Below, piece by piece: positions 19,421 to 39,936 of a stretch of DNA of 64,000 nucleotides. The first letter of the stretch is position 1. Each line of letters opens with the position of its first letter. Both the position numbers and the translations under genes were made by a program. The notes beneath the pieces are model-generated. The model made no database searches, had not been told where the DNA came from, and saw only the letters and a list, made by a program, of their open reading frames with translations. The DNA is from Gammaproteobacteria bacterium (lineage in GTDB: Bacteria > Pseudomonadota > Gammaproteobacteria > Eutrophobiales > Eutrophobiaceae), in assembly GCA_965215365.1 (NCBI GenBank), contig CBDCDS010000003.1, positions 2,304,001-2,368,000 of the forward strand. Direction: 5' to 3'.

Positions 19421-20212
19421 CAAACTACATCCGTGTAGTTTGCCCCGATGGGGCCAGCTGCGCTGTCCAAATTCGTTCCAGACGAATTTGTGCAAACTAC
19501 ATCCGTGTAGTTTGCCCCGATGGGGCCAGCTGCGCTGTCCAAATTCGTTCCAGACGAATTTGTGCAAACTACATCCGTGTAGTTTGCCCCGATGGGGCCA
19601 GCTGCGCTGTCCAAATTCGTTCCAGACGAATTTGTGCAAACTACATCCGTGTAGTTTGCCCCGATGGGGCCAGCTGCGCTGTCCAAATTCGTTCCAGACG
19701 AATTTGTGCAAACTACATCCGTGTAGTTTGCCCCGATGGGGCCAGCTGCGCTGTCCAAATTCGTTCCAGACGAATTTGTGCAAACTACATCCGTGTAGTT
19801 TGCCCCGATGGGGCCAGCTGCGCTGTCCAAATTCGTTCCAGACGAATTTGTGCAAACTACATCCGTGTAGTTTGCCCCGATGGGGCCAGCTGCGCTGTCC
19901 AAATTCGTTCCAGACGAATTTGTGCAAACTACATCCGTGTAGTTTGCCCCGATGGGGCCAGCTGCGCTGTCCAAATTCGTTCCAGACGAATTTGTGCAAA
20001 CTACATCCGTGTAGTTTGCCCCGATGGGGCCAGCTGCGCTGTCCAAATTCGTTCCAGACGAATTTGTGCAAACTACATCCGTGTAGTTTGCCCCGATGGG
20101 GCCAGCTGCGCTGTCCAAATTCGTTCCAGACGAATTTGTGCAAACTACATCCGTGTAGTTTGCCCCGATGGGGCCAGCTGCGCTGTCCAAATTCGTTCCA
20201 GACGAATTTGTG
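19421..20212. repeat. Perfect tandem array, 11 x 72 bp, three hairpins per unit
   Basis: Unit CAAACTACATCCGTGTAGTTTGCCCCGATGGGGCCAGCTGCGCTGTCCAAATTCGTTCCAGACGAATTTGTG, no spacers. Confidence 0.97.
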
Positions 20213-20268
20213 CACAGCGATAGCTGCCCGAAGGGTTGCGTCCATGGATGGATGCAATGAGGGATCTG

Positions 20269-20928
20269 TCAGATGCCGGTGATACAGATACCGGAATGGG
20301 AGGTCTTGTAGGTCCTGTTGATGTGGATAAGCAGGCTGGTCAGGGCTTCGGTGGCGGCGGCGTTGGCAAGTTTGCCGGCATTGATGGCGCGACAACCGCT
20401 GTCCTGCACCAGTTGCATGACCTCCTTGCGGGTTGCCGGGTCGTCCCCGGTCACCAGGATGTCGCAGTCTATGTCCACATCCTGCTCCAGCAGGTTGGCG
20501 GCGACATTGTGGTAGGCGGCGCAGACCCGCGCCTGTGCGCCCACCAGTTGCTGCGTGATCACTGCTGCGCTGCCCTGTTCCGGCAACCGTACCACGGCCA
20601 CCTTGGGCGGCGCCAGCGGCACCGTGGTGTCTATCAGCAGCTGTCCGGACAGGGCCGGCAGGATGTCCTCCAGGGTGGCTGCATGGGCGGCAAACGGCAC
20701 CGTCAGCGTCACCACCTCCGCCTGACGGGTGGCGCCGAGGTTATCGGCACCGGTAATCGTCTCCACGCCCTGCTTGCCATTGAGTTCGGCAGCTACGCGT
20801 TGCGCCTTGTCCGCCACCCGGGAACCGATGATCACCTCATGCCCGGCCCGGGCCCAGCGCCAGGCCAGACCGTAACCCAGGTTGCCGGTGCCGCCGAGGA
20901 TAGCTATTTTTTTTCTGTTACAATGCAA
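20269..20928 (-). CDS. npdG: NADPH-dependent F420 reductase
   Basis: IAILGGTGNLGYGLAWRWA, IIGSR, DTTVPL, EALTSLLIHINR. Confidence 0.92.
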   Translation of the reverse strand: MHCNRKKIAILGGTGNLGYGLAWRWARAGHEVIIGSRVADKAQRVAAELNGKQGVETITGADNLGATRQAEVVTLTVPFAAHAATLEDILPALSGQLLIDTTVPLAPPKVAVVRLPEQGSAAVITQQLVGAQARVCAAYHNVAANLLEQDVDIDCDILVTGDDPATRKEVMQLVQDSGCRAINAGKLANAAATEALTSLLIHINRTYKTSHSGICITGI

Positions 20929-20944
20929 ACCTGTTACTCCAAAT

Positions 20945-21018
20945 TGGGGGCTCGTCTAACGGTAGGACAGCGGACTCTGACTCCGCCGGTAGAGGTTCGA
21001 ATCCTCTGCCCCCAGCCA
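20945..21018 (+). tRNA. tRNA-Gln (CTG)
   Basis: Cloverleaf TGGGGGC...GCGGA-CTCTGAC-TCCGC...GGTTCGAATCC...GCCCCCAGCCA. Confidence 0.96.
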
Positions 21019-21031
21019 GTTCCACGTTCAT

Positions 21032-21526
21032 CTACAGGTTGGCCAGGACGTTCTCAGCCGAACTGACCTTGAATTGCATGGGCGCTTCGACATGGAGTTG
21101 AGTGACTACGCCGTCATCCACCACCATGGCGAAACGCTGGCCGCGGGTAGCCATGCCCGAATCGGCAAAGTCCTGTTCCAGCCCCAACGCCGCGGCGTAG
21201 GCACCGTTGCCGTCAGCCAGCATCAACACCTTGTCGCCGGCGCCGACGCGCTGGCCCCAGGCCTCCATTACAAACATATCGTTCACCGCCATGCAGGCGA
21301 TGGTATCCACGCCTTTGGCCTTGATGGCTGCGGCCTGTTCGATGAAGCCAGGCAAGTGCTCTTTATGGCAAGTCGGGGTAAACGCGCCCGGCGTAGAAAA
21401 CACCACGACCTTCTTGCCGCCAAACAATTCATCGGTACTGACCGAACCCGGCCCGTCTGCATTGATGACGTGAAACCGCCCGTCAGGGGCTTTATCTCCA
21501 ACTTGTATTGTCACTTTGACCTCCAC
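21032..21526 (-). CDS. Peroxiredoxin (Prx5 type)
   Basis: PGAFTPTCHKEHLPG, VND.FVMEAWG, LADGNG. Confidence 0.93.
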   Translation of the reverse strand: MEVKVTIQVGDKAPDGRFHVINADGPGSVSTDELFGGKKVVVFSTPGAFTPTCHKEHLPGFIEQAAAIKAKGVDTIACMAVNDMFVMEAWGQRVGAGDKVLMLADGNGAYAAALGLEQDFADSGMATRGQRFAMVVDDGVVTQLHVEAPMQFKVSSAENVLANL

Positions 21527-21598
21527 TCAGGGTTGCTGGTTATTGACGCAGATCATTATAACAGGGAATAATAGCTGGAATCATTCCCGGCGCACAAT

Positions 21599-22591
21599 TT
21601 GACTACCCCATTCACAACAGCAATAGCCCTGCAGCAGGTCCAGGCCCTGGTCAGGGAGGACCTGCAGGCGGTGAATGCACTGGTACAGGAAAAACTGCAT
21701 TCCGAGATCGGGTTGATCGACCAACTCGGCCACTACATCGTCAACAGTGGCGGCAAGCGCCTGCGGCCGGCGCTGGTGTTGCTCAGCGCCCGGTGTTTTG
21801 GTTATCGCGGCAATCTGCATATCCTGCTGGCGGCGGTCATCGAATTTATTCATACCGCCACCTTGCTGCACGATGACGTAGTCGATGCTTCCAAGTTGCG
21901 CCGCGGCAAGGCCAGCGCCAACCAGCGCTGGGGCAACGAAGCCAGCGTGCTGGTGGGTGATGTTCTCTATTCCTGCGCCTTTCGGATGATGGTCGAGGCC
22001 GGCGACATACGCGTCATGGACATCATGGCGGAGGCCACTCAGACCATTGCCGAGGGCGAGGTGTTACAACTCATCAACCGCCATGACCCGGACACTACGC
22101 AACAGCGCTACCTGCATGTCATCCACAATAAAACGGCCAAGCTGTTCGAGGCCGCAGCCCGGGTTGGCACAGTGCTTGCCGACCAGGACCGGGACACCGA
22201 GCAGGCGCTGGCCGATTACGGCCGGCGCCTGGGCGTCGCCTACCAGCTGATTGACGATGTGCTGGATTACGACGCGCCCGGCGCCGCACTGGGGAAAAAT
22301 ATCGGCGACGATCTGGCCGAAGGTAAACCCACCCTGCCGCTGTTATATGCCCTGTGGCAGTCCCCGGCACCACAAGCTGCGCTGCTCAAAAACGCAATCA
22401 CCCAGGGCAGCCTGGAGAACCTGGAGCAAGTACGCGCCGCCATCACGGACACCGGCGCCATTGAGTACACGCGCACGCTGGCGCAACGGGAGGCAGAACA
22501 GGCGCGCCAATCCCTCGCCGACCTGCCCGCCTCAGACTACCTGCAAGCCTTGCACACCCTGACCCACTTTGCGGTGGAGCGGAGCTATTAG
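21599..22591 (+). CDS. ispB: Octaprenyl diphosphate synthase
   Basis: GGKRLRP, EFIHTATLLHDDVVD, QLIDDVLD, GDDLAEGKPTLP. Confidence 0.93.
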   Translation: MTTPFTTAIALQQVQALVREDLQAVNALVQEKLHSEIGLIDQLGHYIVNSGGKRLRPALVLLSARCFGYRGNLHILLAAVIEFIHTATLLHDDVVDASKLRRGKASANQRWGNEASVLVGDVLYSCAFRMMVEAGDIRVMDIMAEATQTIAEGEVLQLINRHDPDTTQQRYLHVIHNKTAKLFEAAARVGTVLADQDRDTEQALADYGRRLGVAYQLIDDVLDYDAPGAALGKNIGDDLAEGKPTLPLLYALWQSPAPQAALLKNAITQGSLENLEQVRAAITDTGAIEYTRTLAQREAEQARQSLADLPASDYLQALHTLTHFAVERSY

Positions 22592-22698
22592 GAAACCTCT
22601 GGTAACCTCTAACAATGCCCTCCGTGGTATTTTTAGAGGTTCCCTTTACATACATTCGGGGTGTGCAGTAACCCGATCATGAGCGTTTAGAGGCGCTC
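22591..22698 (+). repeat. Dispersed repeat family B copy
   Basis: ACCTCTAA.AAT.CCCTCCGTGGTATTTTT and CGGGGTGTGCAG...GATCATGA..GTTTAGAGGC shared with 36604-36710. Confidence 0.8.
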
Positions 22699-22719
22699 TT
22701 CAGTCTGTTTTGACCATAT

Positions 22720-22754
22720 TTGACAAAACCTGAATTAAATTTTAGATTTGTCAG
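22720..22754 (+). promoter_or_regulatory. Sigma70 promoter overlapped by an inverted repeat; predicts a leaderless mRNA
   Basis: TTGACA-17nt-TAGATT, 6 nt before ATG 22755; TGACAAA...TTTGTCA. Confidence 0.6.
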
Positions 22755-23939
22755 ATGTATCAGAACAGACGGCTCATAAAACCGCTTGCTGCGGCATTAT
22801 CTCAATTTCCGGCGGTGTTGATTACCGGCCCGCGGCAATCCGGAAAAACCACCTTTCTCAGAACGGAGCTGGGCTCAGCTTATCAGTACGTTTCCTTTGA
22901 TGCGCCGGTCGAACGGGAATTTGCTCTGCATGATCCGAACGGCTTTCTGGAACAGTTTGCCGACGGACCGGTGATACTGGATGAGATTCAATACCTGCCG
23001 GAACTCCTGCCGTACCTGAAGATACGTATTGATCGGCGGCGGGATGAATACGGCCGCTGGCTGTTGACCGGGTCGCAGCAGTTTTCCCTCATGCAGAACG
23101 TCAGTGAGTCCCTAGCGGGGCGTATCGCCTTGCTGGAACTGCTTCCCTTCAGCCTCACAGAGTTGCAGCCCGGACGCAGCGACCTGCCACATTTTATCTG
23201 GTATGGCGGCTACCCGGAACCGGCCCTGCAAACCGACAAGCGGGAGCTGTGGATGAACTCTTATATCCGGACCTACATCGAGAGGGATATCAGGCTGTTG
23301 CAAAATGTCCGGGATATTCGTGCATTTGAAACCTTCATTGCCTTGTGTGCAGGGCGCCATGGGCAAGTGTTCAACAATGCCGCCATAGCCAGACAGTGCG
23401 GTGTCTCCGAGCCGACGGTAAAATCCTGGGGGAGCTTGTTGCAGGCTTCTTATATCGCCTGGTTCCTGCCGCCTTATTTCCGCAACTACAATAAAAGGAT
23501 AATTCGCTCTCCGAAGTTTTATATTATTGATTCGGGGTTGGTTTGCGCCCTGACCAGACAGCCGGATGCGCACTCCGCCCTAGCCGGTCAAATGGGGGGC
23601 GCGCTATTTGAAGGAATGATTGTTATGGAAGCTGTAAAAGTGTTCATCAATCGGGGGCTGAGACCCGACTTGTATTGCTGGCGCTCCCATGACGGCCTGG
23701 AGGTTGATTTGCTCATCCGCCTGAACGGGCGTTTGCTACCTGTTGAGATCAAGTTGACCGCAACGCCGACCAACGGTTTTTTTAAGCCAATCAACAAATT
23801 CAGGGCCTTGGCCGGTAATGATGCCAGTGATACAGGTGTGCTGGTGTGCCGGACCGAGCAGCCAAGACAAATGCCGAACGGCAACATTGCGCTGCCGTGG
23901 CGCCAATTCCCGACCTGGCTGGACGGTTTGCTCGCTTGA
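22755..23939 (+). CDS. AAA_14 ATPase with DUF4143 / PD-(D/E)XK C-terminus
   Basis: GPRQSGKTT, ILDEIQ, ESLAGR, GGYPE, EVDLL..PVEIK. Confidence 0.9.
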   Translation: MYQNRRLIKPLAAALSQFPAVLITGPRQSGKTTFLRTELGSAYQYVSFDAPVEREFALHDPNGFLEQFADGPVILDEIQYLPELLPYLKIRIDRRRDEYGRWLLTGSQQFSLMQNVSESLAGRIALLELLPFSLTELQPGRSDLPHFIWYGGYPEPALQTDKRELWMNSYIRTYIERDIRLLQNVRDIRAFETFIALCAGRHGQVFNNAAIARQCGVSEPTVKSWGSLLQASYIAWFLPPYFRNYNKRIIRSPKFYIIDSGLVCALTRQPDAHSALAGQMGGALFEGMIVMEAVKVFINRGLRPDLYCWRSHDGLEVDLLIRLNGRLLPVEIKLTATPTNGFFKPINKFRALAGNDASDTGVLVCRTEQPRQMPNGNIALPWRQFPTWLDGLLA

Positions 23940-23975
23940 CACCAGGCCTTGCCACTGCTACGCTTGCGCCGCAAT

Positions 23976-24052
23976 CGGGGTGTAGCTCAGTCTGGTAGAG
24001 CACTGCCTTCGGGAGGCAGGGGCCGGAGGTTCAAATCCTCTCACCCCGACCA
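23976..24052 (+). tRNA. tRNA-Pro (CGG)
   Basis: CGGGGTG...CTGCC-TTCGGGA-GGCAG...GGTTCAAATCC...CACCCCGACCA. Confidence 0.96.
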
Positions 24053-24094
24053 GCATTCAGGCCGGCACTTCGCACAGATGTTTTGCGCTGAGCG

Positions 24095-27000
24095 CTACTT
24101 TGCGCGCAGATGGATTGCCATTATCGCCGGCACCAGCAGCATCAGTATGACCGTGGTAAAGAGGATGCCGAAACCGAGTGATGCGGCAAAGGGAGTCAGA
24201 AACTTGGCGTGAATAGCCCGTTCCAGGATGATCGGCATGAAGCCCAGAAACGTAGTGATAGAGGTCAGGAAGATGGGACGAAAACGCATTTTGGCGCCAT
24301 CGATAATCGCCTCACGCGCTGGCGCGCCCTCGCGTAAACGCTGATTGATAAAGTCGATCATCACCAGGGAATCATTCACCACCACCCCGCTAAGGCCAAT
24401 GAAACCAAAGGCGGACGCGCTGCTGAAGGGTAAACCCAGGATCAGGTGCCCCAGAATCGCCCCCGCCAGACCAAATGGAATAACAGCCATGATGATAAAC
24501 GGCTTACTGTAGGAACGAAGCGGCGCCGCCAGCAAGCAGTAAATCACGAATATGGCGATAATCATGCTGCGATTCAGTGCGTCAAACGACTCTACTTGTT
24601 GTTGTTGTTCACCCCCCAGCCGGTACGTCAGCCCGGGGTTGGCGGCTATGAGTTGCGCCAGGATGGTATCCTCCAAGATTTTATTTGCTTCAGCGCCGGA
24701 AATGATGGATTGATCGACATCCGCAGTCACCGTGATAGCCCGTTGCCGGTCCCGGCGCTTGATCGCCGACGGTGAAATGCCCTGTGTCAGCTCGGCTATC
24801 TGGCTCAAGGGTACCTCAACACCGCCCGGGGTGCGGATCAGGTAGCCTTCGACATCGGTAATGGCCTGGCGCTCGGCCTCGGGCAGGCGCACATAAGCGC
24901 GCACTTCCTCGCGGCCTCTTTGTATGCGTAGCGCCTCGGCGCCAAAAAAAGCGGCGCGTGCCTGATGGGCCACGTCATCAAGACTGAGCCCGAGCGTGCG
25001 CGCCTCCGGCCGCATTTCGATCTGAATCTCCCTGACCCCGGAAGCATTGTCCGAACGCACATCGAAGACACCGCCCATAGCGCGCAGTTCGTCTGCCACG
25101 GAACTGACAATTTGCGTCAAACGCGCAGGGTCGGGGTGCGACAAAATGGCCTCAATAGGGTTGCCCCAATCAACCAGTTCGCTACTGAAGATAAGGTTGC
25201 GCACCTGTGGCAGCAGCCCCACTTCCGCGCGCCATAGCTGCAGGAACTGCTCGCTGGTCACGGTGCGCTGCTGTGCGCTCAGCAATTTGAATTCAACGGT
25301 GGCGATGTTGGCTTCGGGATTCAGCGTCGGCGTCGGCGTCACTCCGCCTCCCATGATACGCGCGCGCTGACCGACCACCACCGTGACACCGTCAAGCAGC
25401 AGCGACGCGTGCTCCGGGCGCGTGCGCTCGAGGCGTTCAATGACCCGCCGCCCGGCTGCTTCCAGAGCGCTCGCCACTTTATATGTTTGCCCGGCGGTCG
25501 TGCCTTCGGGCATCTCCAGGCTGGCCGTTACAAAGTCGCCTGCCACCTCCTCTGCGAACGCGGTCTTAATAATGCCGGCCGGGAACATGGAGACACAGAC
25601 TATGAGTGTACCAATGGCGCCAGCGATAATGATAACAGGCTGCCGAATGGCAAAGCCTAACGCCCGCTCCAATGGCCCCTGCAGGAACCGCTCCAGCCCC
25701 CGGTCAACATGGCCTTGCGTCCAGTGAAAGAAGCGGTCCGGCGCACGGCGGGGAGTCCACTCCGGGCCCGGCAGATGTGACAGATGATTGGGCAGGATTA
25801 ACAACGATTCAACCAGGGAAATCAGCAGCATTGAAATCAGCACGATAGGCACCGGGCGCATGATGTCACCAATCCCGCCGGGCAGGAACAGCAGTGGGGC
25901 AAATGCCACGACCGAGGTCAGCACGGCGAACGTCAACGGCCCCTTGATACGGCGCGCGCCACGGATCGCAGCCACGACACCCGGCGTGCCCTGTTTACGT
26001 TCATGGTGGATATGCTCGGCAACCACGATGGCATCATCGACTACTATGCCGATGGCCAGCACGAACGTGAACAGAGAAATGGAACTGAGTGACAGGTCGA
26101 ACACCAGCATAACGGCCAGGGCGCCAATACCCGACAGGGCCAGTCCCACGGCTACCCACAAGGCCAGCCGAATCTCCAGGAACAGCGTCAGGGCGATGAA
26201 CACCAGTAGCAGACCCAGTAGGCCGTTCTTTACCAGCAGGTTGGCGCGCTCCGAATAAATCAGGGATTCATCATTCCAGACCGTAATCCCGACACCCTCC
26301 GGCAGCGCCGGCTGCACCACCTTGGCGAGGTGCTCGCGCACTGCCTCGGCAACACCTGTCACCGGCTCGCCGTCAGCGCGGTACACCTCAATGAATGCGG
26401 CCGGCCGGTTCTGATGACGGACGATCAGGTCGCTCTTGCTGAAATCGTCGCGCACCCGGGCTATATCACCCAGCCGCACTACCGTACCGTCGCTACGGCT
26501 GAGGATGACGATATCCTCAAAATCCTGCTGGGTGTAACGTTGTCCCAGCGTACGCACGCGTACCTGGGTCGTGTTGGTATCCAGGCTGCCGGCCGACAGG
26601 TCCAGCGAACTTTGACGCACCGTTGCCGCGATATCCTCCAGAGTCAGGCTCAGCGCCCGCAAGCGTTGTAATGGCACTTCGATGGAAATTTCATAGTCGC
26701 GGATGCCGGTCACCTCGACCTCGGATACATCCGGCAGCGTTGTCAGCTTATCCTCGACCTGATAGGCCAACTCCTTGAGTGCGCGCGCCGGGATCTGACC
26801 ATGGATAATCAGGCGGATGATACTCTGGCGGTTGGTCATTTCCCTGATCACGGCGCGTTCGGCGGCGGCCGGGAAGGACTGGATGCGATCCACCGCGGCT
26901 TTGATTTCGTCCAACGCGGCGCCGACATCCGCGCCCGATTTTAATTGCGCCCGGACCGACCCCATGCCCGGGGCGGCTACGGACTTCAGCGTTTTTACGT

Positions 27001-28461: not shown

Positions 28462-28462
28462 G

Positions 28463-32172: not shown

Positions 32173-32685
32173 TCAACCGGGCGCGTCCCGCCCGCTCGCC
32201 CCACCAGCCAACGACGACCCCGCCTCCACATACGCCTTCACGGCCTCCACATCGGCGGTAATGCCCTTTATGGCCGCCGGCCGGAGAAAGGGTGTAACCA
32301 GCTTGCCCATGAAGCTGATCGGCTCTATCCGCACCAGCATGTCGAGTTGGGCCTGGTCGCCGCTTTCATTGGGCGTCACGGTAAAGGTTGTGTGCCAGAG
32401 GGCTCCCGCCTCCTCGGTCACCAGCTGGACCATACTGCCATCCTCGAAACCGGTCACCTCGCTTTCAGTTGCTGACAGGCCAAAGACCCTCGCAAAGAAC
32501 GCCTGCACGCCGCTGAAGCGGCGGGTCTCATGAAATCGGGCGCCGACTCCGGTTTCATTTTCAGTGAGGAAATGCACCGTATCAATCTCTGGAATCGCCT
32601 TGCCGTAGTTGCGGCCATTGGCGACGACATCGAACACGGCCGGCGCTGTTGCGGCGATAGTCCGGCTGATCTTAATTGGCTTCAT
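32173..32685 (-). CDS. SRPBCC/START-family ligand-binding protein
   Basis: ISRTIAA...VFDVV, GVGARFHETR, C-terminal helix DVEAVKAYVE. Confidence 0.8.
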   Translation of the reverse strand: MKPIKISRTIAATAPAVFDVVANGRNYGKAIPEIDTVHFLTENETGVGARFHETRRFSGVQAFFARVFGLSATESEVTGFEDGSMVQLVTEEAGALWHTTFTVTPNESGDQAQLDMLVRIEPISFMGKLVTPFLRPAAIKGITADVEAVKAYVEAGSSLAGGASGRDAPG

Positions 32686-32918
32686 ATCTGATTAATCTCC
32701 TCTTCCTCGTTGTCGTTTCTTGCCGCGGGTTCCCTGCTACAGGTGTTGAGAGAGGTCTCTTGATGCACGATAAAAACAGTTGCTGCACAACAGCAGCATA
32801 GCCTCAGGAACAACTGCAGTATATCAGACATTTCAAGACCTGTGTTACGAACTGTTACGAACACACCTCTTCAAAATTCGGACGATGCGGGTCTCATTGA
32901 CGGGTTGCGCAAAGCGGT

Positions 32919-34298
32919 TCAGGCTTTGCGCAACCGCCAACCGTACATCAGGCGACCATAAAAGTTAAACCACTTGCGCGTTTCTTCATTATCGAAAGGG
33001 TAGTCGGCGCCCAGTTGCCTGGCAGTAACCAAGCCGGTAATGAAGCAGGTTTCCTGACTGTTGATCAAGGTATGCGCGCCGCAGTGCCAGCTGCGCCGTT
33101 TGCCCTGGATCAGGCGGAACAACGGCACCAGCAAGGCCACGTGGCGCACGTCATGCACGACATGCTGGAACCACCACTTCCTGACGATTTTGTTCTCGTC
33201 AATGGGAGTAATCGGGTTGTAAGTCACCAGACACGGCTTGTCCGAGCTGTTTGCCCAAGGCTGCTGATTGTGCATGATATAGGTGATTTCGTAGTTATCC
33301 GGTCTGACGCCGTACTGTTCTATGTGGTTGCTGCGGGTAGTGAGCGGTTTGACATCGTTGTCCGGCAGCACCGAGGCATCCGAATGCACCACAGTGTGGT
33401 TGTGTAACTCACTCTCGTAGCGCACGGACGAGAGCAGAAAACTCTCCAGCAAGCTCGGCTGGTCCAACATCATCAAGGTCTGATTAGCGTTGCAAGCGAA
33501 TACCACGTCATCGAAGTTCTCCCGTTGACCCTGTTCATCCTCTATCACGACTTCATCTGCATAGCGATACACCTTGCGCACCGGCCGGTTAAGGTAAATC
33601 CGCTCCTGAAAGCCTGCCGACATCTTTTCATAAACATGCCGCGTGCCCCGGTCCCAGGTTTGCATCGGCGTGGCCGCTTCGATATCAAAGAACTCCAGGT
33701 AGCGGGCGAACAGCGACGCCGGCATGTCAAACACGTTTGTGGCCATGAGAAAGTTAACGAACATTGGCTTTAATATCTTGTAGCGGAAGTCGCCGGAAAA
33801 CCTGCCTAGGTTCAGCAACATGCCCATGCTGAGGTAATTAAAGGGATTGATGGCATTGAGCAGGCGCGAGCGCGAGCGGTTCAGCCGGCCCAACCACTGC
33901 AACCCCCTGAGCATCTTCTGAAACTTCTTGATTTCCGGTTGTAATGCGCGCCTGATATCGGTGTCGAAATCATGCGCGTACAGGCCGCCGCGGTATTTCA
34001 CGCTGTAACTGAAACGGGTATCGACCAGGTCGATGTCATGTTCCTGCATGAACAGCAGGATATGATGGTACACCGTAGGGATGCAGGCGGTGACGGAAAT
34101 ATCGAATGGAATGGAGGAGCCATCATCCTGCGGCATATCCGCAGTGTAGGCATTGCCGCCGACGCGGGACTGCGCTTCGTACAGCCGGAAATCGAACCTG
34201 TCAGGATGCCGATGCAAGGCCCAAGCAAGCCCCAGGCCTGACACCCCGGCGCCAATAATGGCAATTTTTCTCGGCTCAGCAGTGTGGTTAACCCGCAT
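32919..34298 (-). CDS. FAD-dependent oxidoreductase (amine oxidase-like)
   Basis: IAIIGAGVSG, E....VGGNA, IQGKRRSWHCGA, SQETCFITG. Confidence 0.8.
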   Translation of the reverse strand: MRVNHTAEPRKIAIIGAGVSGLGLAWALHRHPDRFDFRLYEAQSRVGGNAYTADMPQDDGSSIPFDISVTACIPTVYHHILLFMQEHDIDLVDTRFSYSVKYRGGLYAHDFDTDIRRALQPEIKKFQKMLRGLQWLGRLNRSRSRLLNAINPFNYLSMGMLLNLGRFSGDFRYKILKPMFVNFLMATNVFDMPASLFARYLEFFDIEAATPMQTWDRGTRHVYEKMSAGFQERIYLNRPVRKVYRYADEVVIEDEQGQRENFDDVVFACNANQTLMMLDQPSLLESFLLSSVRYESELHNHTVVHSDASVLPDNDVKPLTTRSNHIEQYGVRPDNYEITYIMHNQQPWANSSDKPCLVTYNPITPIDENKIVRKWWFQHVVHDVRHVALLVPLFRLIQGKRRSWHCGAHTLINSQETCFITGLVTARQLGADYPFDNEETRKWFNFYGRLMYGWRLRKA

Positions 34299-34570
34299 AT
34301 CTCACCAAGTCGCTTGTTGCATTGTGAAACATTTTTACTCTCAATAAGTTATGGGCACCTCTCACAAACACGAGGTGCCCGTGCAGCACAGGGATGTGCT
34401 GCCAGTAACAGCAAGCACGTAAGTGCCTGAAAATGAAGGAAATGAAAAATTACACTTTTTCATTTCCGTCTCTAAACTTTCATGATCAGGGCGTTGCACA
34501 CCCCGACAGTATGTAAATCTGTAAAATTTACATAGCAAAAATGCCACGGAGGGCATTTTTAGAGGTTACC
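34286..34570. repeat. Composite of repeat families A (34286-34348) and B (34353-34570)
   Basis: Segments match 10466-10528, 19314-19397 and the reverse complement of 36604-36710. Confidence 0.85.
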
Positions 34571-34692
34571 TTATGGTAATTTCTGTTCTTTCCACATAAC
34601 ACACTGCGCTTGATGCGCCCTCGCTGGTCCTGGTTCTGCCTGCGGGCACGTGCTTGTTCAACCATAGCTACGGCTATGGTTTCGGGCGCAGG

Positions 34693-34762
34693 CACCCGCC
34701 GGCAGAACCAGTCCGGCGCGAGCTTCGCATCACCTGGTGAGATCTGCGGGTTAGAGGTAACC
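34693..34762 (+). repeat. Dispersed repeat family A variant 2 with a family-B end
   Basis: Reverse complement of 14221-14281; ends TTAGAGGTAACC. Confidence 0.8.
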
Positions 34763-34842
34763 ATGGCGGTACAATACGACAATGTGGCCAGTCATGCAAA
34801 TTTTGTCCGGGTTCTGTGTTGTCCGGGTCAAACAGGACCTGT

Positions 34843-35086
34843 GCAGCAATTCCCGCTAATGCCTGAGCAGTCATAAAATCCTTACAAATACAGGGTGGAT
34901 TCAGTATACTACCAGGCATTATTCACGTCAAAGGTGAGGTGAGCCATGTCCCGTCCTGCTTTACGTAAGTCGCTGAGTGCCCCGGGTTTGTTAAGTGAAG
35001 TCCGCCGTGTCCGGGTGCGGCAGCTTGCCGCAGAGATTCCAAAAGGCAAACTCCCAACGGCGCAAGAACCGAGGAGGACATTTTAG
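34843..35086 (+). mobile_element. Probable IS remnant (ISNCY-like left end plus transposase N-terminus)
   Basis: CAGCAATTCCCGC end-like motif, then ORF 34946-35086 MSRPALRKSLSAPGLLSEVRR; family assigned from recall. Confidence 0.45.
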
Positions 35087-35092
35087 AGTTTG

Positions 35093-35698
35093 CTATGAGC
35101 CATGTCTCTGCTTTTTCCAATAAATCAAACGGTTATTCGCCGGCATGGGGTAGTCACGTTGCAGCTGCAGGTTTGCCGATGTGGCCAGCTTATTGACCTC
35201 TTCAAAGTGTCGGATACCGCTTTGCGGGTCGCGTTGCTGCAGCCATAAGTCAAACCTTGCATTACTCTCGCTGGTATAGGCGTTGTTGTAGTTGAATGGT
35301 CCGTACATGGCCAGCAAGCCATTGTCGGGAAGCAGCTTTCCTACCCCGCTGAACAGAGCCTTCACGGACTCCCGGCTTATGATATGGATCGTGTTTGCGC
35401 AAAACACTGCATCGACTTGCAGCTCGGGCCAGTACGGCTGGTTGACGTCCAGTGCCAGTGGCGCCGGCGTGTTGGGCAGGTTGGCTTCAGCCAGCCATAA
35501 TTTGATGCCGGCATGGTGTTGCGGGAGCTCACTGCTGTGCCAGACCAGGTGCGGCAGGTTTGTGGCGAAGTAAACCGCATGCTGACCGGTGCCGCTGCCG
35601 ATCTCCAGAACCTGCTGGCAATCGGCAAACAGTGTTTGAATAATTTCCAGAATGGGTTGCCGGTTGTTGTCACAGGCGGCGGAATAGGGTTTGTTCAT
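35093..35698 (-). CDS. DUF938-family SAM-dependent methyltransferase
   Basis: LEIGSGTGQHA, YGPF, SNARFD.WL, MPANN. Confidence 0.92.
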   Translation of the reverse strand: MNKPYSAACDNNRQPILEIIQTLFADCQQVLEIGSGTGQHAVYFATNLPHLVWHSSELPQHHAGIKLWLAEANLPNTPAPLALDVNQPYWPELQVDAVFCANTIHIISRESVKALFSGVGKLLPDNGLLAMYGPFNYNNAYTSESNARFDLWLQQRDPQSGIRHFEEVNKLATSANLQLQRDYPMPANNRLIYWKKQRHGS

Positions 35699-35784
35699 AT
35701 AAAAGGCCAGGGTGCTGCGGCTCGTTGTGTCTGTTCTTGCAAATGAGTCTTGACATCACCTCGCTACAGGTTATTGTCATTGCC

Positions 35785-36405
35785 ATGCCAAGTCTATCAA
35801 AAATTCAGGCATTAACGCTTTGCGCGTTATTCTTGGGTAGCTTCCTGCCTGTGCCCCAAAACCTGGCAGGCAACCTGCTTGCAAGCAGCGGCGCTAAACT
35901 CGACGAGACGCAGGTCCAAGCAGTTGAGAAAGCAGCCATAACTTCGGCCGAGGTAGAACAGCAACGCCAGGCCATCGCAGTGATGCTGGCGGAATACGAG
36001 CTCGAAGGCAGGAAACTGCTGGACGGACTTGATGGAACTGCCGACAGGAACCAGATTGACCGGCAGGCCGGCGCCCTGCTCTCCGCCGGTGAAGAGATCA
36101 TGGGCTGGGCCCGGTTCCGCTTACAACAGTGCGATGAATACCTTAGCAAGGCCCTGGAACTCAAGGCAATGATGCCTGACATTACCCTGGAAGTACTGGA
36201 GCGGGATTATCATCACGATGGCGCGTTGCCGCAAGCGCTGCCGGAGTGCTACCACATCAAAGACACATTCGTACATCCGGCTACAGTGTTGGTGCTGACC
36301 CGTGATGACCCCGCCCTGGGGCAGGAAACCGTTGCCGGCATCAAGGCGGAGCTACAGGAAGTGCTGGGGCACATAGAGGTCGTGCGACAACTGATTGTCT
36401 ATTGA
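35785..36405 (+). CDS. Secreted hypothetical protein with Cys/His motifs
   Basis: Signal-like N-terminus; CDEYL, DYHHDG, CYHIKD..VHPATV. Confidence 0.7.
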   Translation: MPSLSKIQALTLCALFLGSFLPVPQNLAGNLLASSGAKLDETQVQAVEKAAITSAEVEQQRQAIAVMLAEYELEGRKLLDGLDGTADRNQIDRQAGALLSAGEEIMGWARFRLQQCDEYLSKALELKAMMPDITLEVLERDYHHDGALPQALPECYHIKDTFVHPATVLVLTRDDPALGQETVAGIKAELQEVLGHIEVVRQLIVY

Positions 36406-36406
36406 A

Positions 36407-36470
36407 GGGAACCTCTAACCCGCATATCTCACCAAGTCGCTTGTTGCATTGTGAAACATAATTGTTCTCC
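36407..36470 (-). repeat. Dispersed repeat family A joined to a family-B end
   Basis: GGGAACCTC-TAACCCGCATATCTCACCAAGTCGCTTGTTGCATTGTGAAACAT. Confidence 0.85.
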
Positions 36471-36603
36471 CAACTTCGACGGTTTATTTCTCTAACTGAT
36501 TGATTTTATTGAAGGCGCGTTGACCCTCAGGCACTACAATTGCCCTATATCGGCGTTCTCAGGGGCCGGCTATTTGAGCTCGTAGGGGGGTGGAGTGACT
36601 TAA

Positions 36604-36710
36604 GGGAACCTCTAAAAATACCCTCCGTGGTATTTTTGCTGTGTAAATTTTGCAGATTTACATATTGTCGGGGTGTGCAGTGCCCTGATCATGAAGGTTT
36701 AGAGGCACCC
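36604..36710 (+). repeat. Dispersed repeat family B, MITE-like copy with terminal inverted repeats
   Basis: GGGAACCTCTAAA ... TTTAGAGGCACCC. Confidence 0.85.
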
Positions 36711-36878
36711 ATATGTATTGAACCTGGACAAATCATTTGTCTTTGCTGAGGTATAAGGTAGAGTGTGCATGGGTCTTACCTGTGAAACCCATCCGGTGAT
36801 AGTCATTGATCTCGCAAGACATTACACAGACAAGGCTTTTTGATTCTTGGCCTTGCTAACGCGGGATTAGAGAATAAC

Positions 36879-37854
36879 ATGCTCGACTCAAGCATAAAAA
36901 TTGCTGATCAATACAGCCCGGATGAGCAAGCAGTACTTTTCCATGGCAACTGCCTGGACCTGCTGAAAGAGATACCGGAGCGTAGCGTCCAACTGGTTGT
37001 CACCTCTCCCCCTTATAACATCGGCAAGGAATACGAGAAGAAAATAAATATTGACAAGTACCTCAGCCAACAGGCCGAAGTAATTAAGGACTGTGTACGT
37101 GTTCTTTCCGATACGGGAAGTATTTGTTGGCAGGTAGGCAATTATGTCAACGATGGTTCAATCATTCCCTTAGATACAGTTCTGTATCCGATATTTACTG
37201 AACTTGATTTGGTCATGCGCAATAGAGTCATCTGGTATTTTGAGCATGGATTACACTGCACCAGACGGTTTTCCGGCCGCTATGAAACCATAATCTGGTT
37301 TACCAGAAAAACGAAGGAATTCGTGTTTAATCTCGACCCGGTCCGAGTTCCGCAGAAATATCCGGCCAAGAAATACTTCAAGGGACCTAAAGCCGGGCAA
37401 TATTCCTGCAACCCCCTCGGTAAAAATCCGGGGGACATCTGGGATATACCCAATGTCAAGAATAACCATATAGAGAAGACCGAGCATCCCTGCCAGTTTC
37501 CGGTAGGTCTCATCGAGCGGCTGGTCTTGTCGATGACCAACGAGGGAGATTGGGTGTTTGACCCTTTTCTGGGAACCGGCACATCGGTTATTGCCGCACT
37601 ACGCCACAAAAGAAGGGGGGGGCGGCGCTGAGACGGAAAAGAAATACGTCAGGATTGCAAAAGACAGGATACAGAATCAGATAGACGGCACCCTGCGAAC
37701 TCGGCCGATGAATAAACTCAAATATGATCCCGCCACGGGCAACAACAAATTGACCGTGCCGCCATGGGATACTACCGGCGAAGAGGCAATACAAGAGAGA
37801 TTGATGGAGCCCCGCGCAAAATACCATAACGATGAGGGGCCGTTTGCTGTTTAG
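36879..37854 (+). pseudogene. Beta-class N4-cytosine DNA methyltransferase, frameshifted at a G8 run
   Basis: VTSPPY, HPCQFP, DPFLGTGT in frame 1; continuation GAETEKKYVRIAKDRI lies in the +1 frame after G8 at 37615-37622. Confidence 0.82.
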
Positions 37855-38299
37855 TCCGATCGATATGAACAGGTCATTCAAAAAGCTCCTGGAAGATAAA
37901 GGATGGGCAGAAAGTCGCGTCAGCTATTGGGTGACAAAGGATGAGAAGTTGATCAGAAAGACACTCACCATGTCTCCGGAACAGCAAAAACAGGAAATTG
38001 AACGAACAGACTCTTCCCCGATATACAGCTACAACCAGACTGATTTTGTCAAAGACAGGGTGGCAATTGAGGTTCAATTCGGAAAATATTCCTTTGTTGC
38101 ATACGATTTATTTGTTAAACACCTTGCATTTTACGTGGGTGACAAAATTGATGTCGGTGTTGAAATTTTACCCATGAAACAACTGCAATCCCAAATGAGC
38201 TCCGGCGTGTCTTACTACGAAGGAGAGCTGTACAATGTTATTAGGCAGGGACGTGGGGTGCCGGCAGTGCCGCTGGTAATTGTGGGAATTGAAGATTAA
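37832..38299 (+). pseudogene. BglII/BstYI-family type II restriction endonuclease, apparently lacking its N-terminus
   Basis: NQTDFVKDRVAIEVQFGKY, DVGVEILP, MSSGVSYYE; only 155 aa. Confidence 0.75.
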
Positions 38300-38370
38300 A
38301 AATCATCCGCCGCGCTTCGGGCAAGTGGTTAACCGCGTTGGTGCCGGTATAACGCTGAAACAATGCGGAA

Positions 38371-38650
38371 TTGGGCAAGCGCGGCGTGTACTGCCTGCGC
38401 TCTAACCGCACCGACTGGGACGAGGACACCCTCTGGCGCACCTACTTCATGCTCACCGAGGTCGAAGCTGTGTTCCGCGCACTGAAATCCGAGCTGGGCC
38501 TGCGCCCCATCTACCACCACACGCCCGTGCGCGCCGAAGGACACCTGTTCATCAGCGTCATCGCCTACCAACTGGTGCAGGTCATTCGCACCCGCCTGAA
38601 ACACACCGGCGAGCACGCCAACTGGACCACCCTGCGCCGCACCCTCGGCA
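38371..38650 (+). mobile_element. IS1634-family transposase C-terminal fragment
   Basis: GVYCLRSN...Y..LTEVEAVFRALKSELGLRPIYHH...RAEGHLFISVIAY. Confidence 0.85.
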
Positions 38651-38722
38651 GAGGAATGCAGTTCCCGCAAGCTCAGCCGGCAGGCCGGGCGCAGCAGACG
38701 AACTATAACCGAATGTGCCGGT

Positions 38723-38824
38723 TCAGGAGTCTTTGTCCTGGTAAGGATACTTATAGGCCAACCAGAGCAATACAATCGCTCCTATAAAAGTAGTTGCTCC
38801 AGCAGCCAGCAAAGCCATATTCAT
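38723..38824 (-). CDS. 33-aa single-TM small protein (not in ORF track)
   Basis: MNMALLAAGATTFIGAIVLLWLAYKYPYQDKDS; ATGA overlap with the stop of the upstream small gene. Confidence 0.5.
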   Translation of the reverse strand: MNMALLAAGATTFIGAIVLLWLAYKYPYQDKDS

Positions 38825-39009
38825 CGCTTTTTCCTCATATTGCCAAGGGCTAACAAAAAAATGCCAACCAGTGCCAGCCAGATAGCCAACCAAGTGTTTC
38901 CTCCCTCAAGAACGCCGCTCAAAAAGCCGGCAGAGGTAACGATGATACCCAGCCGACGAATATCTTCCAGCACAGTCGGCACATAAAATTCAAAGTTTTC
39001 AAATGACAT
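38821..39009 (-). CDS. 62-aa two-TM small membrane protein
   Basis: MSFENFEFY...two hydrophobic segments, basic tail RKKR. Confidence 0.55.
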   Translation of the reverse strand: MSFENFEFYVPTVLEDIRRLGIIVTSAGFLSGVLEGGNTWLAIWLALVGIFLLALGNMRKKR

Positions 39010-39042
39010 ATCGGTGACAGTATAGCACACGGCAATACTTGA

Positions 39043-39936
39043 GGGGTCGTTGACCCCCTTGCCATAGTTGGCGGAGAGAGAGGGATTACAAACTACCTCC
39101 CTGTAGTTTGCCCCTGCGGGGCCAGCTACGCTGTTCAAATTCGCTCCCGGCGAATTTGTCGAACCCGGGTGTTGATTATCGAGGGTTCGAATCCGTACTG
39201 CAACAACTACCACAAGGGGGGGTCGTTGACCCCCTTGCCATAGTTGGCGGAGAGAGAGGGATTACAAACTACCTCCCTGTAGTTTGCCCCTGCGGGGCCA
39301 GCTGCGCTGTTCAAATTCGCTCCCGGCGAATTTGTCGAACCCGGGTGTTGATTATCGAGGGTTCGAAGCCACACTCAACAACTATGGCAAGGGGGTCGTT
39401 GACCCCCTTGCCATAGTTGGCGGAGAGAGAGGGATTACAAACTACCTCCCTGTAGTTTGCCCCTGCGGGGCCAGCTGCGCTGTTCAAATTCGCTCCCGGC
39501 GAATTTGTCGAACCCGGGTGTTGATTATCGAGGGTTCGAAGCCACACTCAACAACTATGGCAAGGGGGTCGTTGACCCCCTTGCCATAGTTGGCGGAGAG
39601 AGAGGGATTACAAACTACCTCCCTGTAGTTTGCCCCTGCGGGGCCAGCTGCGCTGTTCAAATTCGCTCCCGGCGAATTTGTCGAACCCGGGTGTTGATTA
39701 TCGAGGGTTCGAAGCCACACTCAACAACTATGGCAAGGGGGTCGTTGACCCCCTTGCCATAGTTGGCGGAGAGAGAGGGATTACAAACTACCTCCCTGTA
39801 GTTTGCCCCTGCGGGGCCAGCTGCGCTGTTCAAATTCGCTCCCGGCGAATTTGTCGAACCCGGGTGTTGATTATCGAGGGTTCGAAGCCACACTCAACAA
39901 CTATGGCAAGGGGGTCGTTGACCCCCTTGCCATAGT
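39043..39936 (-). repeat. tRNA-Ser-linked tandem repeat: 4 identical 173-bp units plus one diverged 176-bp distal unit
   Basis: TGGCGGAGAGAGAGGGATT recurs at 39069, 39245, 39418, 39591, 39764 and 39937 (the tRNA itself). Confidence 0.96.

Follow-up and report, generated by a model that had tools for sequence, protein, structure and literature searches.

A 72-nt four-hairpin module of the tRNA-linked repeat family in tandem arrays behind tRNA-Ser genes and in an npdG-cofC spacer of a gammaproteobacterium

Within a single stretch of 64,000 nt (the window), one short sequence unit is found both as a head-to-tail array between two protein-coding genes and inside partial tRNA copies behind a tRNA-Ser gene. 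A preliminary description regarded it as a defined, structure-conserved 72-nt unit, present as a free concatemer and as an exact insertion into a T-loop copy, possibly mobile and targeting the T-loop.

The first array was detected by Tandem Repeats Finder (TRF) at 19419-20214 (period 72, 11.1 copies, 100 % matches) and comprises 11 identical type-A modules in head-to-tail order on the minus strand (19420..20211). The copies were also recovered with nhmmer and with R1, a covariance model of 78 positions built from the module (87 bits per copy). Read in the sense direction, with GGA in its loops, the type-A module lies on the minus strand, which is also the coding strand of the two neighbouring genes: an npdG-like F420-dependent NADP oxidoreductase gene (20269..20928, minus strand; Pfam F420_oxidored, E = 3.6e-17) and cofC of the 2-phospho-L-lactate guanylyltransferase family (18670..19311, minus strand; Pfam CofC, E = 2.1e-18). 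The head-to-tail amplification described earlier was found again, but the concatemer is not free, since it is embedded in a MITE-like mosaic of 951 nt (19313-20263) with flanks that are met again elsewhere in the same genome.

One MITE-like arm of this carrier mosaic (19313..19419, no strand assigned) was delimited from blastn of the flanks, a flank table, the empty site in the sister species G006 and the downstream ORF. It contains a repeat of ~84 nt with blastn matches at ~60 genomic places and a plus-strand hairpin with an AGGAT loop, and its end adjoins the cofC start codon (complement of 19309-19311), where a GAGGTGG Shine-Dalgarno-like hairpin is located. The backbone on the other side (20212..20263, no strand assigned) stops 5 nt short of the npdG stop codon and was recognised from carriers with zero module copies in this genome (G000), in G006 and at locus L016. 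In these forms it is fused straight to the 19313-19419 side and resembles an extra module-like unit on the opposite strand, with 13 contiguous pairs in G006. The carrier MITE and the type-A modules have their GGA loops on opposite strands, which makes a simple picture of one transcript harder. This genome holds at least 23 full type-A copies within the MITE-like mosaic, in copy numbers of 0, 1, 6 or 11, and the module copy number per locus ranges from 0 to ~20.

The second array lies downstream of an intact tRNA-Ser(GGA) gene (39937..40027, minus strand; ARAGORN; Rfam tRNA 57.8 bits). TRF reported it at 39043-39955 (period 173, 5.3 copies, 98 % matches), and together with reading of the sequence this gave a minus-strand array of 5.3 units of 173 nt at 39043..39936. 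Each unit consists, in order, of a palindrome, a diverged antisense acceptor piece, an antisense T-arm, ~10 nt, GGGTTCG, the module and AATCCCTCTCTCTCCGCCA. A regular-expression scan confirmed the exact 72-nt spacing from GGGATT to CGAACCC (GGGTTCG and AATCCC on the sense strand) in all five units. The module copies are of type S and on the minus strand; the four nearest to the tRNA (39783..39854, 39610..39681, 39437..39508 and 39264..39335, in order of distance) score 90.3 bits each with R1, and the distal fifth (39088..39159), which differs from them in one base, scores 90.9 bits. Directly 3' of the first copy, the terminal 19 nt of tRNA-Ser(GGA), which run from A58 through CCA, are repeated (39764..39782, minus strand; 19/19 identical by direct reading). 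The same 19-nt end recurs at 39591-39609, 39418-39436, 39245-39263 and 39069-39087, every 173 nt except at the distal unit, where the spacing is 176 nt. In these repeats the module splits the partial tRNA copy at G57|A58.

The exact T-loop position claimed in the preliminary description therefore holds, but the unit is more than an interrupted tRNA copy: it also has a long palindrome, which begins at the CCA, together with a copy of the cognate T-arm in antisense. The latter occurs once per unit (39873..39889, with GGCTTCGAACCCTCGAT on the minus strand) and could pair in a splint-like manner with both halves of the split T-arm; in the minimum free energy (MFE) fold UCGAACCC is paired with GGGUUCGA. 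In the arrays of tRNA-Ser(TGA) and tRNA-Ser(CGA) the antisense T-arm varies along with its cognate tRNA. The perfect palindrome, right after CCA and once per unit (39901..39935, minus strand), is lengthened by the fold to a stem of 17 bp (39900-39936). A U-tract is absent, and a simple scan did not score the palindrome as a terminator. A promoter-like TTGAGT-16-GATAAT (39870..39897, minus strand) is a weak hint: it was scored in four of the units, against a shuffle mean of 0.7, all four sites being copies of one sequence. A restriction-modification pair and a weak transposase fragment lie just past the array.

Units of this kind lie behind each of the three tRNA-Ser genes in the genome, with nine module copies in total in arrays of 2 to 5; every one of the nine interrupts its partial tRNA copy at G57|A58, and the final 19 nt of the tRNA come after it. 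The 3' flanks of tRNA-Ser(GGA) are unrelated in all three genus members examined that have no repeats at that gene, and at the orthologous npdG-cofC site of G006 the mosaic is absent and 26 unrelated bases are found instead. On these sequence comparisons both the repeats at tRNA-Ser(GGA) and the mosaic at npdG-cofC would be the derived state.

The type-A and tRNA-linked cores are identical at 61 of 70 positions, and the nine differences are placed as originally described: two in the loop of hairpin 1, three in the loop of hairpin 2, one in the linker, one in the loop of hairpin 3 and two forming a compensatory change from T-A to C-G in hairpin 3. Both a two-module sequence (-64.4 kcal/mol, z = -7.3) and a single 173-nt unit (-80.4 kcal/mol, z = -6.2) fold more stably than any of 200 shuffles. 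Covariation was seen in four helices: for 42 distinct modules, 96.2 % of the cells paired compared to 87.7 % in shuffles (0/500 as high), both sides changed in 12 of 25 pairs, and slid controls paired at 22-44 %. The boundaries, which the preliminary description proposed to tabulate, were not random but constant over 68 distinct flank contexts. The constant boundaries and the strong covariation support the view of the module as a discrete unit with a conserved structure.

According to the definition given in PMC8144298, the hallmark of tRNA-linked repeats (TLRs) is a repeat of the 3' end of the upstream tRNA; the family was already known (Egan & Landy 1978 and Rudd 1999, as cited there). Because of the 19/19 nt match to the upstream tRNA 3' end, the 72-nt unit is shown, at the level of sequence comparison, to be the four-hairpin core of this family and not a new kind of element. 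No Rfam family matched the module. In E. coli K-12, R1 gave three matches (66.7 bits, E = 5.9e-12) at 3423269, 4040718 and 4171838 and no strong fourth one. The last of these lies 82 nt past rrfB and immediately ahead of a copy of the 5S 3' end, and the alignment to the E. coli T1-T2 spacer covers all 78 model positions, beyond the first hairpin. This homology shows that the module and the rrA/rrB/rrF sequences, which stand between T1 and T2 in E. coli rrnA/B/D, are one element.

The search of this and related genomes that had been suggested gave, besides the E. coli matches, 55 R1 matches in this genome at no fewer than 30 separate places. Sampling the class with one genome per family gave matches in 65 of 151 genomes, or in 63 of 149 when the unpublished G164 and G266 are excluded. 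That there is no discrete element, and that two local slippage arrays have similar hairpins by chance or composition, would agree with the identity of the copies within each array, but this reading has next to no probability: it is refuted by the number and scatter of the R1 matches, by the homologues across the class and in E. coli and by the covariation, and the constant boundaries also speak against it.

A tRNA or tmRNA gene adjoins the R1 match in 15 of 20 class loci fetched. The tRNA copies of other genomes are interrupted by the module in T-, D- or anticodon loops, in most cases at YG^AA, and both orientations occur. T-loop insertions are in the sense direction at many loci and antisense in three tRNAs of G176; D-loop insertions were found in Ser-TGA in six species of the genus, again in G006, and in Ser-GCT in G176, and an anticodon-loop insertion in Ser-CGA of G150. 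At the tRNA-Ser(TGA) D-loop G006 has GGTTGAAT with three D-loop units, and this genome has GGTTAAAT with none. The insertion is preceded by a short motif (TTCG, GTTG, CTCG or CTTG) that forms part of a DNA-hairpin loop on one or the other strand. T-loops are thus split exactly, as the preliminary description had it, but they are not the sole target, as D-loops, an anticodon loop and the E. coli 5S 3' end are also split.

One explanation for the insertions, that of a tiny non-autonomous mobile element or excisable RNA which targets the integrase crossover position in the T-loop, the units being miniature att-bounded integrations and the RNA having no role, appears unlikely. The direct repeat begins within the T-loop, at A58, and in T-loop-targeting integrases it likewise begins inside the T-loop. 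The proximal copies of G004 and G009 end in CCG-TAA and the distal copy alone in CCG-CCA, the pattern left by an incoming element; some species of the genus have no units, and the restriction-modification pair and transposase fragment are close by. However, none of 13 ORFs tested around two arrays is an integrase, and the would-be crossover region contains the module, which would split the core site. Splitting of D-loops, the anticodon loop and the 5S end, on the upstream as well as the downstream side of the gene and with either orientation, also argues against it, and we know of no tRNA integrase that does this. The class-wide invariant GGA loops and covarying stems point to selection on the folded strand rather than to a passive scar.

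It is very improbable that the module is a palindromic element of the IS200/IS605 or REP-RAYT type, moved as single-stranded DNA by a Y1 HUH transposase that inserts 3' of a short target without duplication. Such a mechanism would fit the hairpins at both module ends, the lack of a clear target duplication or long inverted ends, and insertion after a short motif in DNA-hairpin loops on either strand; the module 3' end (TTTGC) is similar to the target, and head-to-tail arrays would be accounted for in this way. The link to a Y1 transposase failed when tested: the sole Y1 gene of this genome is a RAYT with its own unrelated 48-nt flanking repeats, no Y1_Tnp match was obtained in G006 (98 % complete, one contig, most copies), G004 or G009, and 20 Y1 loci of the genus contained no module-like sequence at E <= 10.

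CsrA/RsmA proteins bind GGA in the hexaloop form A-N-G-G-A-N. GGA is present in the 5' hairpin loop of 42 and the 3' hairpin loop of 40 of the 42 module sequences, and in loci from other families of the class in 34/38 and 36/38, respectively. An invariant C-G pair closes one of the GGA loops, a hexaloop of the form A-N-G-G-A-N, and by analogy the conserved loops of the module look like CsrA docking sites. A csrA gene is present in this genome, and the Rfam models of CsrB, PrrB_RsmZ and RsmY (RF00018, RF00166, RF00195) had no match in it. For E. coli, PMC8144298 reports a KD of ~100 nM for RrB and CsrA, with binding lost once three GGA were changed to UUU, and its Discussion describes the phenotypes of rrA/B/F deletion and overexpression as modest and puzzling. 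The 19 tRNA-operon TLRs of E. coli are given CsrA-binding scores below 0.01 in the same source, so CsrA binding is not a trait of the whole family.

The explanation we favour, and consider fairly probable, is that of an RNA module with predicted CsrA binding, spread by site-specific insertion and amplified by unequal recombination. The module would be made as RNA on its own sense strand, co-transcribed with tRNA-Ser or with the npdG-cofC message, and would display two GGA loops, one in the hexaloop form bound by CsrA/RsmA; an array could then titrate or recruit CsrA. In the tRNA-linked units the tRNA-derived 3' end and the antisense splint may provide a closed, processable RNA end. Copies would arise first by insertion into exposed loops within copies of stable-RNA genes, for the most part at YG^AA and in either orientation, and would afterwards be multiplied by unequal recombination or slippage, which would explain why tandem copies are 100 % identical. 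No enzyme for the proposed insertion was found in the Y1 transposase family, genome- and genus-wide, or among 13 ORFs around two arrays.

The partner of a functional RNA could also be something other than CsrA, namely Hfq, ribosomes attracted by GGAGG-like loops, RNase E processing or a protein acting at the DNA level. We regard this as decidedly unlikely, as the invariant C, A, GGA and G, the closing C-G and the flanking A-U fit the RsmE/CsrA consensus better than a Shine-Dalgarno sequence, and the base after GGA is free. PMC8144298 describes GGA-dependent CsrA binding of the E. coli homologue, although it reports that RrB binds Hfq too and its authors propose the repeated 3' end as an RNase E signal. 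Several module loops read GGGAGG and mimic a Shine-Dalgarno sequence. Folding of the tRNA-Ser unit speaks against CsrA docking there, as its GGGAGG loop is base-paired in the MFE structure to CCCUCUC from the tRNA piece and this site would be hidden. The modules of G176 are antisense to the adjoining tRNAs and keep their GGA loops; they are not readable with the tRNA and would thus need their own promoter, unless the loops act at the DNA level.

Among known systems, the IS200/IS605-derived PATEs and REP/RAYT elements are similar to the module in their hairpin ends, absence of target duplication, short specific target and strand-specific-looking insertion, but differ in their link to a Y1 transposase. 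The BOX elements of Streptococcus pneumoniae and BIME-2 of E. coli are intergenic mosaics in which an inner tandem module varies in number between fixed outer parts. This layout resembles the carrier mosaic; the sequences are unrelated, and to our knowledge these elements are not tied to tRNA genes, nor are their modules known to split tRNA loops. The sponge RNAs CsrB/CsrC/RsmX-Y-Z likewise have many GGA in hairpin loops, of which the 11-copy array would offer 22, but they are stand-alone genes, whereas here exact 72-nt repeats lie in an operon spacer or tRNA trailer.

The E. coli tyrT-tyrV operon contains repeats of 178 bp named RtT or rttR (Egan & Landy 1978, as cited in PMC8144298; Rfam RF00391). 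As in the present arrays, tandem units follow a tRNA gene and end with its last 19 nt (from A58), with GGTTCG, a four-hairpin core of ~68 nt including CCCGAAGGG, then AATCC and the 3' end, and with an upstream piece antisense to the 3' part of the tRNA. Similarity of the cores to the module is weak (R1 10.6 bits, E = 0.019 in 1.7 kb), and unlike the module they have no GGA in the loops. RF00391 had no match in the window units at E <= 10 or in the genome at E <= 0.001.

The E. coli rrA/rrB/rrF share with the module a first hairpin with a CGGGA loop, a linker hairpin, a CCC-loop-GGG hairpin and a last hairpin with a CA-GGA-CG loop, and are also inserted in a partial 3'-end copy of the upstream stable RNA (GAGTAGG, module, AAACTGCCAGGCAT). 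They are described as transcribed by read-through, processed and bound by Hfq and CsrA in vitro (Stenum et al. 2021, PMC8144298), and in that account as reported only from Enterobacteriales (31 species, 12 genera). In E. coli they are single and lie behind 5S rRNA, while here arrays of 2 to 5 lie behind tRNA-Ser and no R1 match is near the single 5S gene of this genome. Also unlike E. coli rrA/rrB/rrF, the module here forms concatemers of 6 and 11 copies that are not next to any stable-RNA gene.

The two arrays of the window are built from one module, a unit of four hairpins. Tandem Repeats Finder reported 11.1 copies of a 72-nt unit with 100 % matches at 19419-20214 (the concatemer, array A, with modules of type A), and 5.3 copies of a 173-nt unit at 39043-39955, behind tRNA-Ser(GGA) (39937-40027, minus strand; ARAGORN and Rfam), where the modules are of type S. 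The preliminary description had claimed that a tRNA copy is split by exactly 72 nt and that the cores of the two arrays are nearly the same. Both claims held on recounting: the spacing from GGGATT to CGAACCC on the plus strand is 72 nt in 5 of the 5 units, the cores match at 61 of 70 positions, and the nine differences lie at the positions first described, one compensatory pair included. The module of the window is real, discrete and structure-conserved, and it is a member of a known but poorly understood family. Two other features of the window were noted. ARAGORN calls a 98-nt tRNA-Arg(GCG) at 15862-15959 (plus strand), which is absent from the Rfam tRNA model matches and lies inside a 742-aa molybdopterin oxidoreductase ORF (15443-17671, minus strand); the call is probably false. 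Tandem repeats with periods of 9, 21 and 45 nt (ATCATGGTC-like; 84-88 % matches for the 9- and 45-nt periods) occupy 57627-57913, probably within a coding region.

The tRNA-linked repeat (TLR) units follow the CCA of tRNA-Ser(GGA) without an intervening base and share its strand, as they also do behind tRNA-Ser(GCT) and tRNA-Ser(TGA). Read on the tRNA strand, each unit opens directly after the CCA with a palindrome that is perfect over 35 nt, followed by two antisense copies, a diverged one of the acceptor 3' strand and a perfect one of the T-arm. After about ten bases come GGGTTCG, the module, and AATCCC with what is left of the final 19 nt of the tRNA. The 3' end of the unit is identical to that of tRNA-Ser(GGA) at 19/19 nt in all five units. 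The tRNA-derived pieces follow the cognate tRNA: units of the tRNA-Ser(TGA) array carry the TGA-specific 3' end and a TGA-specific antisense T-arm, with CCCACGAA where others have CCCTCGAT, and in the tRNA-Ser(CGA) units of another genome (G004) the antisense T-arm piece is CCCACGG. Since this piece can base-pair to each half of the split T-arm, and the minimum free energy fold forms a UCGAACCC/GGGUUCGA helix, pairing in the RNA is a plausible reason for the antisense T-arm changing with the tRNA. A terminator scan of the TLR array gave 0 sites. In the three genus members examined that have no TLR at tRNA-Ser(GGA), the 3' flanks are unrelated and hold neither palindrome nor antisense T-arm, and for this reason the whole tRNA-linked unit, as judged from the compared sequences, is a derived state. 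Directly past the distal end of the TLR array, at 36840-38299 and 38371-38787 (plus strand), are encoded an N6_N4_Mtase DNA methylase and a restriction endonuclease similar to BglII, then a weak DDE transposase fragment; together these may form a small tRNA-Ser-associated island.

The concatemer (19420-20211) has a different setting. The closest tRNA lies at a distance of 734 nt, past npdG and on the opposite strand, and the concatemer has no copied tRNA end. It lies in a mosaic of 951 nt (19313-20263), the carrier, which follows the stop codon of an npdG-like gene and precedes the cofC start codon; the two genes were identified by Pfam and are encoded on the minus strand. In the sister species (G006) the orthologous spacer consists of 26 unrelated bases. 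The flanks of the concatemer recur at other loci with 1, 6 or 11 modules, and a form of the carrier without modules is found in the genome of the window (G000), in G006 (13 contiguous pairs) and at locus L016. The carrier mosaic fits a MITE. Its hairpins hold GGA loops on the opposite strand from the type A modules, which are inverted within a module-like backbone. The inverted ends of the module itself amount only to ACAAA...TTTGT; in the carrier, TGCA stands on either side of a 68-nt insert, which is compatible with a 4-bp duplication or a plain 72-nt insertion, and no target duplication was seen in T-loops. The module sense strand at array A is the strand of the operon message, with the cofC start 109 nt downstream. 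Array A is the only place where the orientation to genes is clear, a crude ORF check having given no clear orientation at six other loci with dispersed copies. At the mosaic ends (window 19313-19345; L016, L018, L020, L023, L024 and L029) an outward-facing hairpin with a Shine-Dalgarno-like loop is directly followed by ATG. This is the cofC start in the window, an ATG abuts the element likewise at the six loci from other species, and at L016 it opens an ORF whose N-terminus resembles a real protein start.

The module occurs at 30 or more places in the 2.73-Mb G000 genome, as found by blastn, nhmmer and a covariance model. The covariance model built from module copies (R1) gave 55 matches at E <= 0.01: 17 in the two exact concatemers, with 11 copies in the window and 6 at C3:2120409-2120840; 9 in arrays behind tRNA-Ser genes; 6 single full copies; 4 truncated copies; 12 copies of a 71-nt sister type; and 7 weak overlaps on the opposite strand. 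Units occur at each of the three tRNA-Ser genes of G000 (GCT, TGA and GGA), and none was found at the remaining 42 tRNA genes or the tmRNA gene. A tRNA-Met gene lies 78 nt from one copy of the sister type, but this copy has MITE flanks. The sister type (G000:C3:1193497-1193567 and 11 further places) has the same four hairpins with two GGA loops and forms the centre of an abundant MITE of ~240 nt ending in TTTTTAGAGGTnnCCAT. Three single module copies sit in a 3.2-kb segment that holds a 1.85-kb repeat, presumably an insertion sequence, of which G000 has about 14 near-identical copies (e.g. C3:880266-882118 and about 13 other places).

With two modules as query, BLAST gave matches in 17 of the genus's 22 other genomes, and in 0 of 18 genomes from elsewhere. 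The zero reflects limited sensitivity; a junction pattern and the covariance model afterwards showed the family to be widespread. Within the order, the pattern GGTT(N)GACAAATTYG had 76 occurrences, spread over 42 of 126 genomes and 20 of 34 genera, against 16 occurrences of the reversed control, and R1 scored a module in 15 of the 17 loci having GGTTCG-ACAAATT. The matches of the junction pattern GGTTGACAAATT at L076-L078, from three other genera, were set aside, as by eye they look like chance and no module seems to follow them. R1 matched 65 of 151 genomes at E <= 1e-5 in a class sample of one genome per family (63/149 without the unpublished G164 and G266), and 21 of 151 at E <= 1e-6 in a phylum sample, 14 of them outside the class. 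A tRNA-Ser gene lies beside the module in 13 of the 31 loci fetched from the genus (5/11 and 8/20). At 20 loci from other genera a tRNA was nearby in 13 and tRNA-Ser in none (Gln 7, Glu 3, Thr 1, Gly 1 and Arg 1), and in the class sample a tRNA or tmRNA gene stood beside the R1 match at 15 of 20 loci. The family also uses tmRNA, as at L094 (G245:C19:70100-71500) the module stands between the tmRNA gene and a copy of the 3' side of the tmRNA T-arm with the acceptor end. Four loci of other genera (L059, L065, L071 and L074) have extra GGA-loop hairpins inside the first hairpin or before the last, as if added piecewise.

According to the preliminary description the module may target the T-loop. 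T-loops are indeed split exactly, but other loops serve as targets too, D-loops and an anticodon loop being split as well. At tRNA-Ser(TGA) of six species, units upstream of the gene contain the first 22 nt of the tRNA with the module at the D-loop (GGTTG, module, A-GTGCACC), together with a hairpin made of sense and antisense pieces of the anticodon stem. The D-loop of this gene reads GGTTGAAT in G006, which has three D-loop units, and GGTTAAAT in G000, which has none; the 3' flanks of the two genes are not orthologous. The D-loop is also split at tRNA-Ser(GCT) of G176 (GCTG, module, AAGG). The same genome has modules antisense to three tRNAs, which interrupt the T-loop at the mirrored point (GGATTCG, module, AACC). 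Upstream of tRNA-Gln in G233 lie three whole copies of the tRNA, each with a module in the T-loop, and in G150 the module lies in the anticodon loop of upstream tRNA-Ser(CGA) copies (CTCG, module, AAA). Among 68 distinct flank pairs, whose sites are not independent, the module was preceded by G or C in 67, and A stood at the first position after it in 56 and at the second in 54.

Enzymes that could have left such junctions were considered. An identity block from the T-loop to the tRNA 3' end, as in an att duplication, is present, but the inserted DNA is just 173 nt per unit and no integrase was found among the 13 ORFs around both arrays, and an integrase scar was ranked low. A Y1 transposase or RAYT was rejected as parent in the manner of IS200/IS605 or REP-RAYT systems: no Y1 HUH transposase gene flanked by or co-occurring with modules was found, 20 Y1 loci held no module, and Y1_Tnp was not detected in G006 (which has most copies), G004 or G009. 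The sole Y1 gene of G000 encodes a RAYT, and the repeats that accompany it are different ones. At that locus (L033, G000:C3:1055390-1058620) the RAYT-type Y1 transposase gene lies between arrays of an unrelated 48-nt REP, and the reading frame runs on through the downstream array to 517 aa.

The structure was assessed in an alignment of 42 distinct modules, 32 from the genus and 10 from other genera. The conserved structure claimed at the outset was borne out: 96.2 % of the cells of the four helices pair compared to 87.7 % after shuffling (0 of 500 shuffles reached the observed value), and slid controls gave 22-44 % pairing. Changes on both sides were observed in 12 of 25 pairs (105 cells). 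The invariant columns are GGA in the first loop and C, A, A and G around a nearly invariant GG in the last, which makes the last loop a hexaloop A-N-G-G-A-N closed by an invariant C-G pair. GGA was present in the first loop of 42/42 modules and in the last of 40/42 (34/38 and 36/38 at loci from across the class), and 40 of the 42 last hairpins read CA(N)GGANG. The hexaloop corresponds to what we take to be the RsmE/CsrA consensus, (A/U)CANGGANG(U/A), and the array A loop ACGGAU is presumably that of the hcnA site. G000 has csrA, at C3:11843-11998, and the Rfam models of CsrB, PrrB_RsmZ and RsmY gave 0 matches in it; the module shares with these sponge RNAs the repeated GGA in hairpin loops, although their models do not match. 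The position of csrA next to tRNA-Ser(GCT) was dismissed as a functional hint and carries no weight, because E. coli has the same csrA-serV order, an inherited synteny. A look-up of sequencing runs returned 5 holders in 2 studies, with none recorded as RNA. The homology to rrB, one of the E. coli TLR RNAs, the invariant loops and the match to the presumed consensus lead us to infer that the module RNA would bind CsrA.

The observations could be joined in one reading, which we regard as rather doubtful as a whole: a still-active insertion module, captured by a MITE, amplified into arrays and taking the place of sponge RNAs. The TLR core would be self-contained, lacking inverted ends and target duplication, and would enter YG^AA sites in the exposed T-, D- and anticodon loops of stable-RNA genes in either orientation, by an undescribed enzyme or an RNA-level route. 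A MITE would then have captured the module in this lineage, giving arrays rich in binding sites, with 22 GGA loops in the npdG-cofC spacer, and these arrays would replace the missing sponge RNAs of the CsrB/Rsm type.

The literature on TLRs in E. coli goes back to 1978. The present results describe their core as a separable module, which exists also away from stable-RNA genes as exact concatemers within a MITE. Since tRNA loops of all three kinds are split by the same module, in many families, in either orientation and for the most part at YG^AA, the origin of TLRs becomes a testable insertion problem. The two GGA loops are the most conserved part of the module over the whole class, which would extend the CsrA link of rrA, rrB and rrF, the E. 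coli TLR RNAs of the rrnA, rrnB and rrnD T1-T2 spacers, to TLRs at tRNA genes. Three points appear to be new against the limited set of literature compared, PMC8144298 included: amplification within a MITE, modules in every one of the three tRNA loops and in either orientation, and GGA loops conserved across the class.

The name tRNA-linked repeats is used for the class in the main text of PMC8144298 (after Egan & Landy 1978; Rudd 1999), which counts 22 TLRs at ten loci in E. coli K-12. They are defined there as lying in a tRNA or rRNA operon just downstream of a stable-RNA gene, and they are recognised by their last 18-19 nt, which match the 3' end of the upstream tRNA or rRNA exactly. Among E. 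coli repeats, those of tyrT-tyrV (RtT) share the anatomy of the window units: an antisense piece comes first, and GGTTCG is followed by a core of ~68 nt with four hairpins, including CCCGAAGGG, then by AATCC and the 3' end. R1 nevertheless gave the tyrT cores only 10.6 bits. The comparison with Rfam yielded nothing but tRNA in the window at gathering score, with just chance-level microRNA and sRNA names at E <= 10; the RtT model (RF00391) had no match in 38900-40100 at E <= 10 or in the whole G000 genome at E <= 0.001, while the E. coli control was detected. At another E. coli K-12 locus (L110, 2816500-2819600) the argV-argY and argZ-argQ spacers are 198 nt each and have no R1 score; they may hold the TLRs listed by Rudd for this operon.

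On the E. coli K-12 chromosome R1 gave three matches at 66.7 bits, which are rrA, rrB and rrF. The match at 4171838-4171910 lies after rrfB, between T1 and the copy of the 5S 3' end, with all 78 model positions aligned. The text of PMC8144298 ascribes to TLRs 'no known function' except for these three, which arise by read-through of T1 and are processed to about 173 and about 115 nt, operon transcription and processing having been shown for them only; they bind Hfq and CsrA, and CsrA binding is abolished by mutating three GGA. On the evidence of anatomy, 3'-end identity and the R1 score of 66.7 bits, the tRNA-linked units of the window are TLRs within this definition and their module is a core of the rrA/B/F type. 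The concatemer is outside the definition, yet it has the same core. A homologous E. coli element is found within the rrnB T1-T2 terminator cassette of many cloning vectors, a point raised in PMC8144298.
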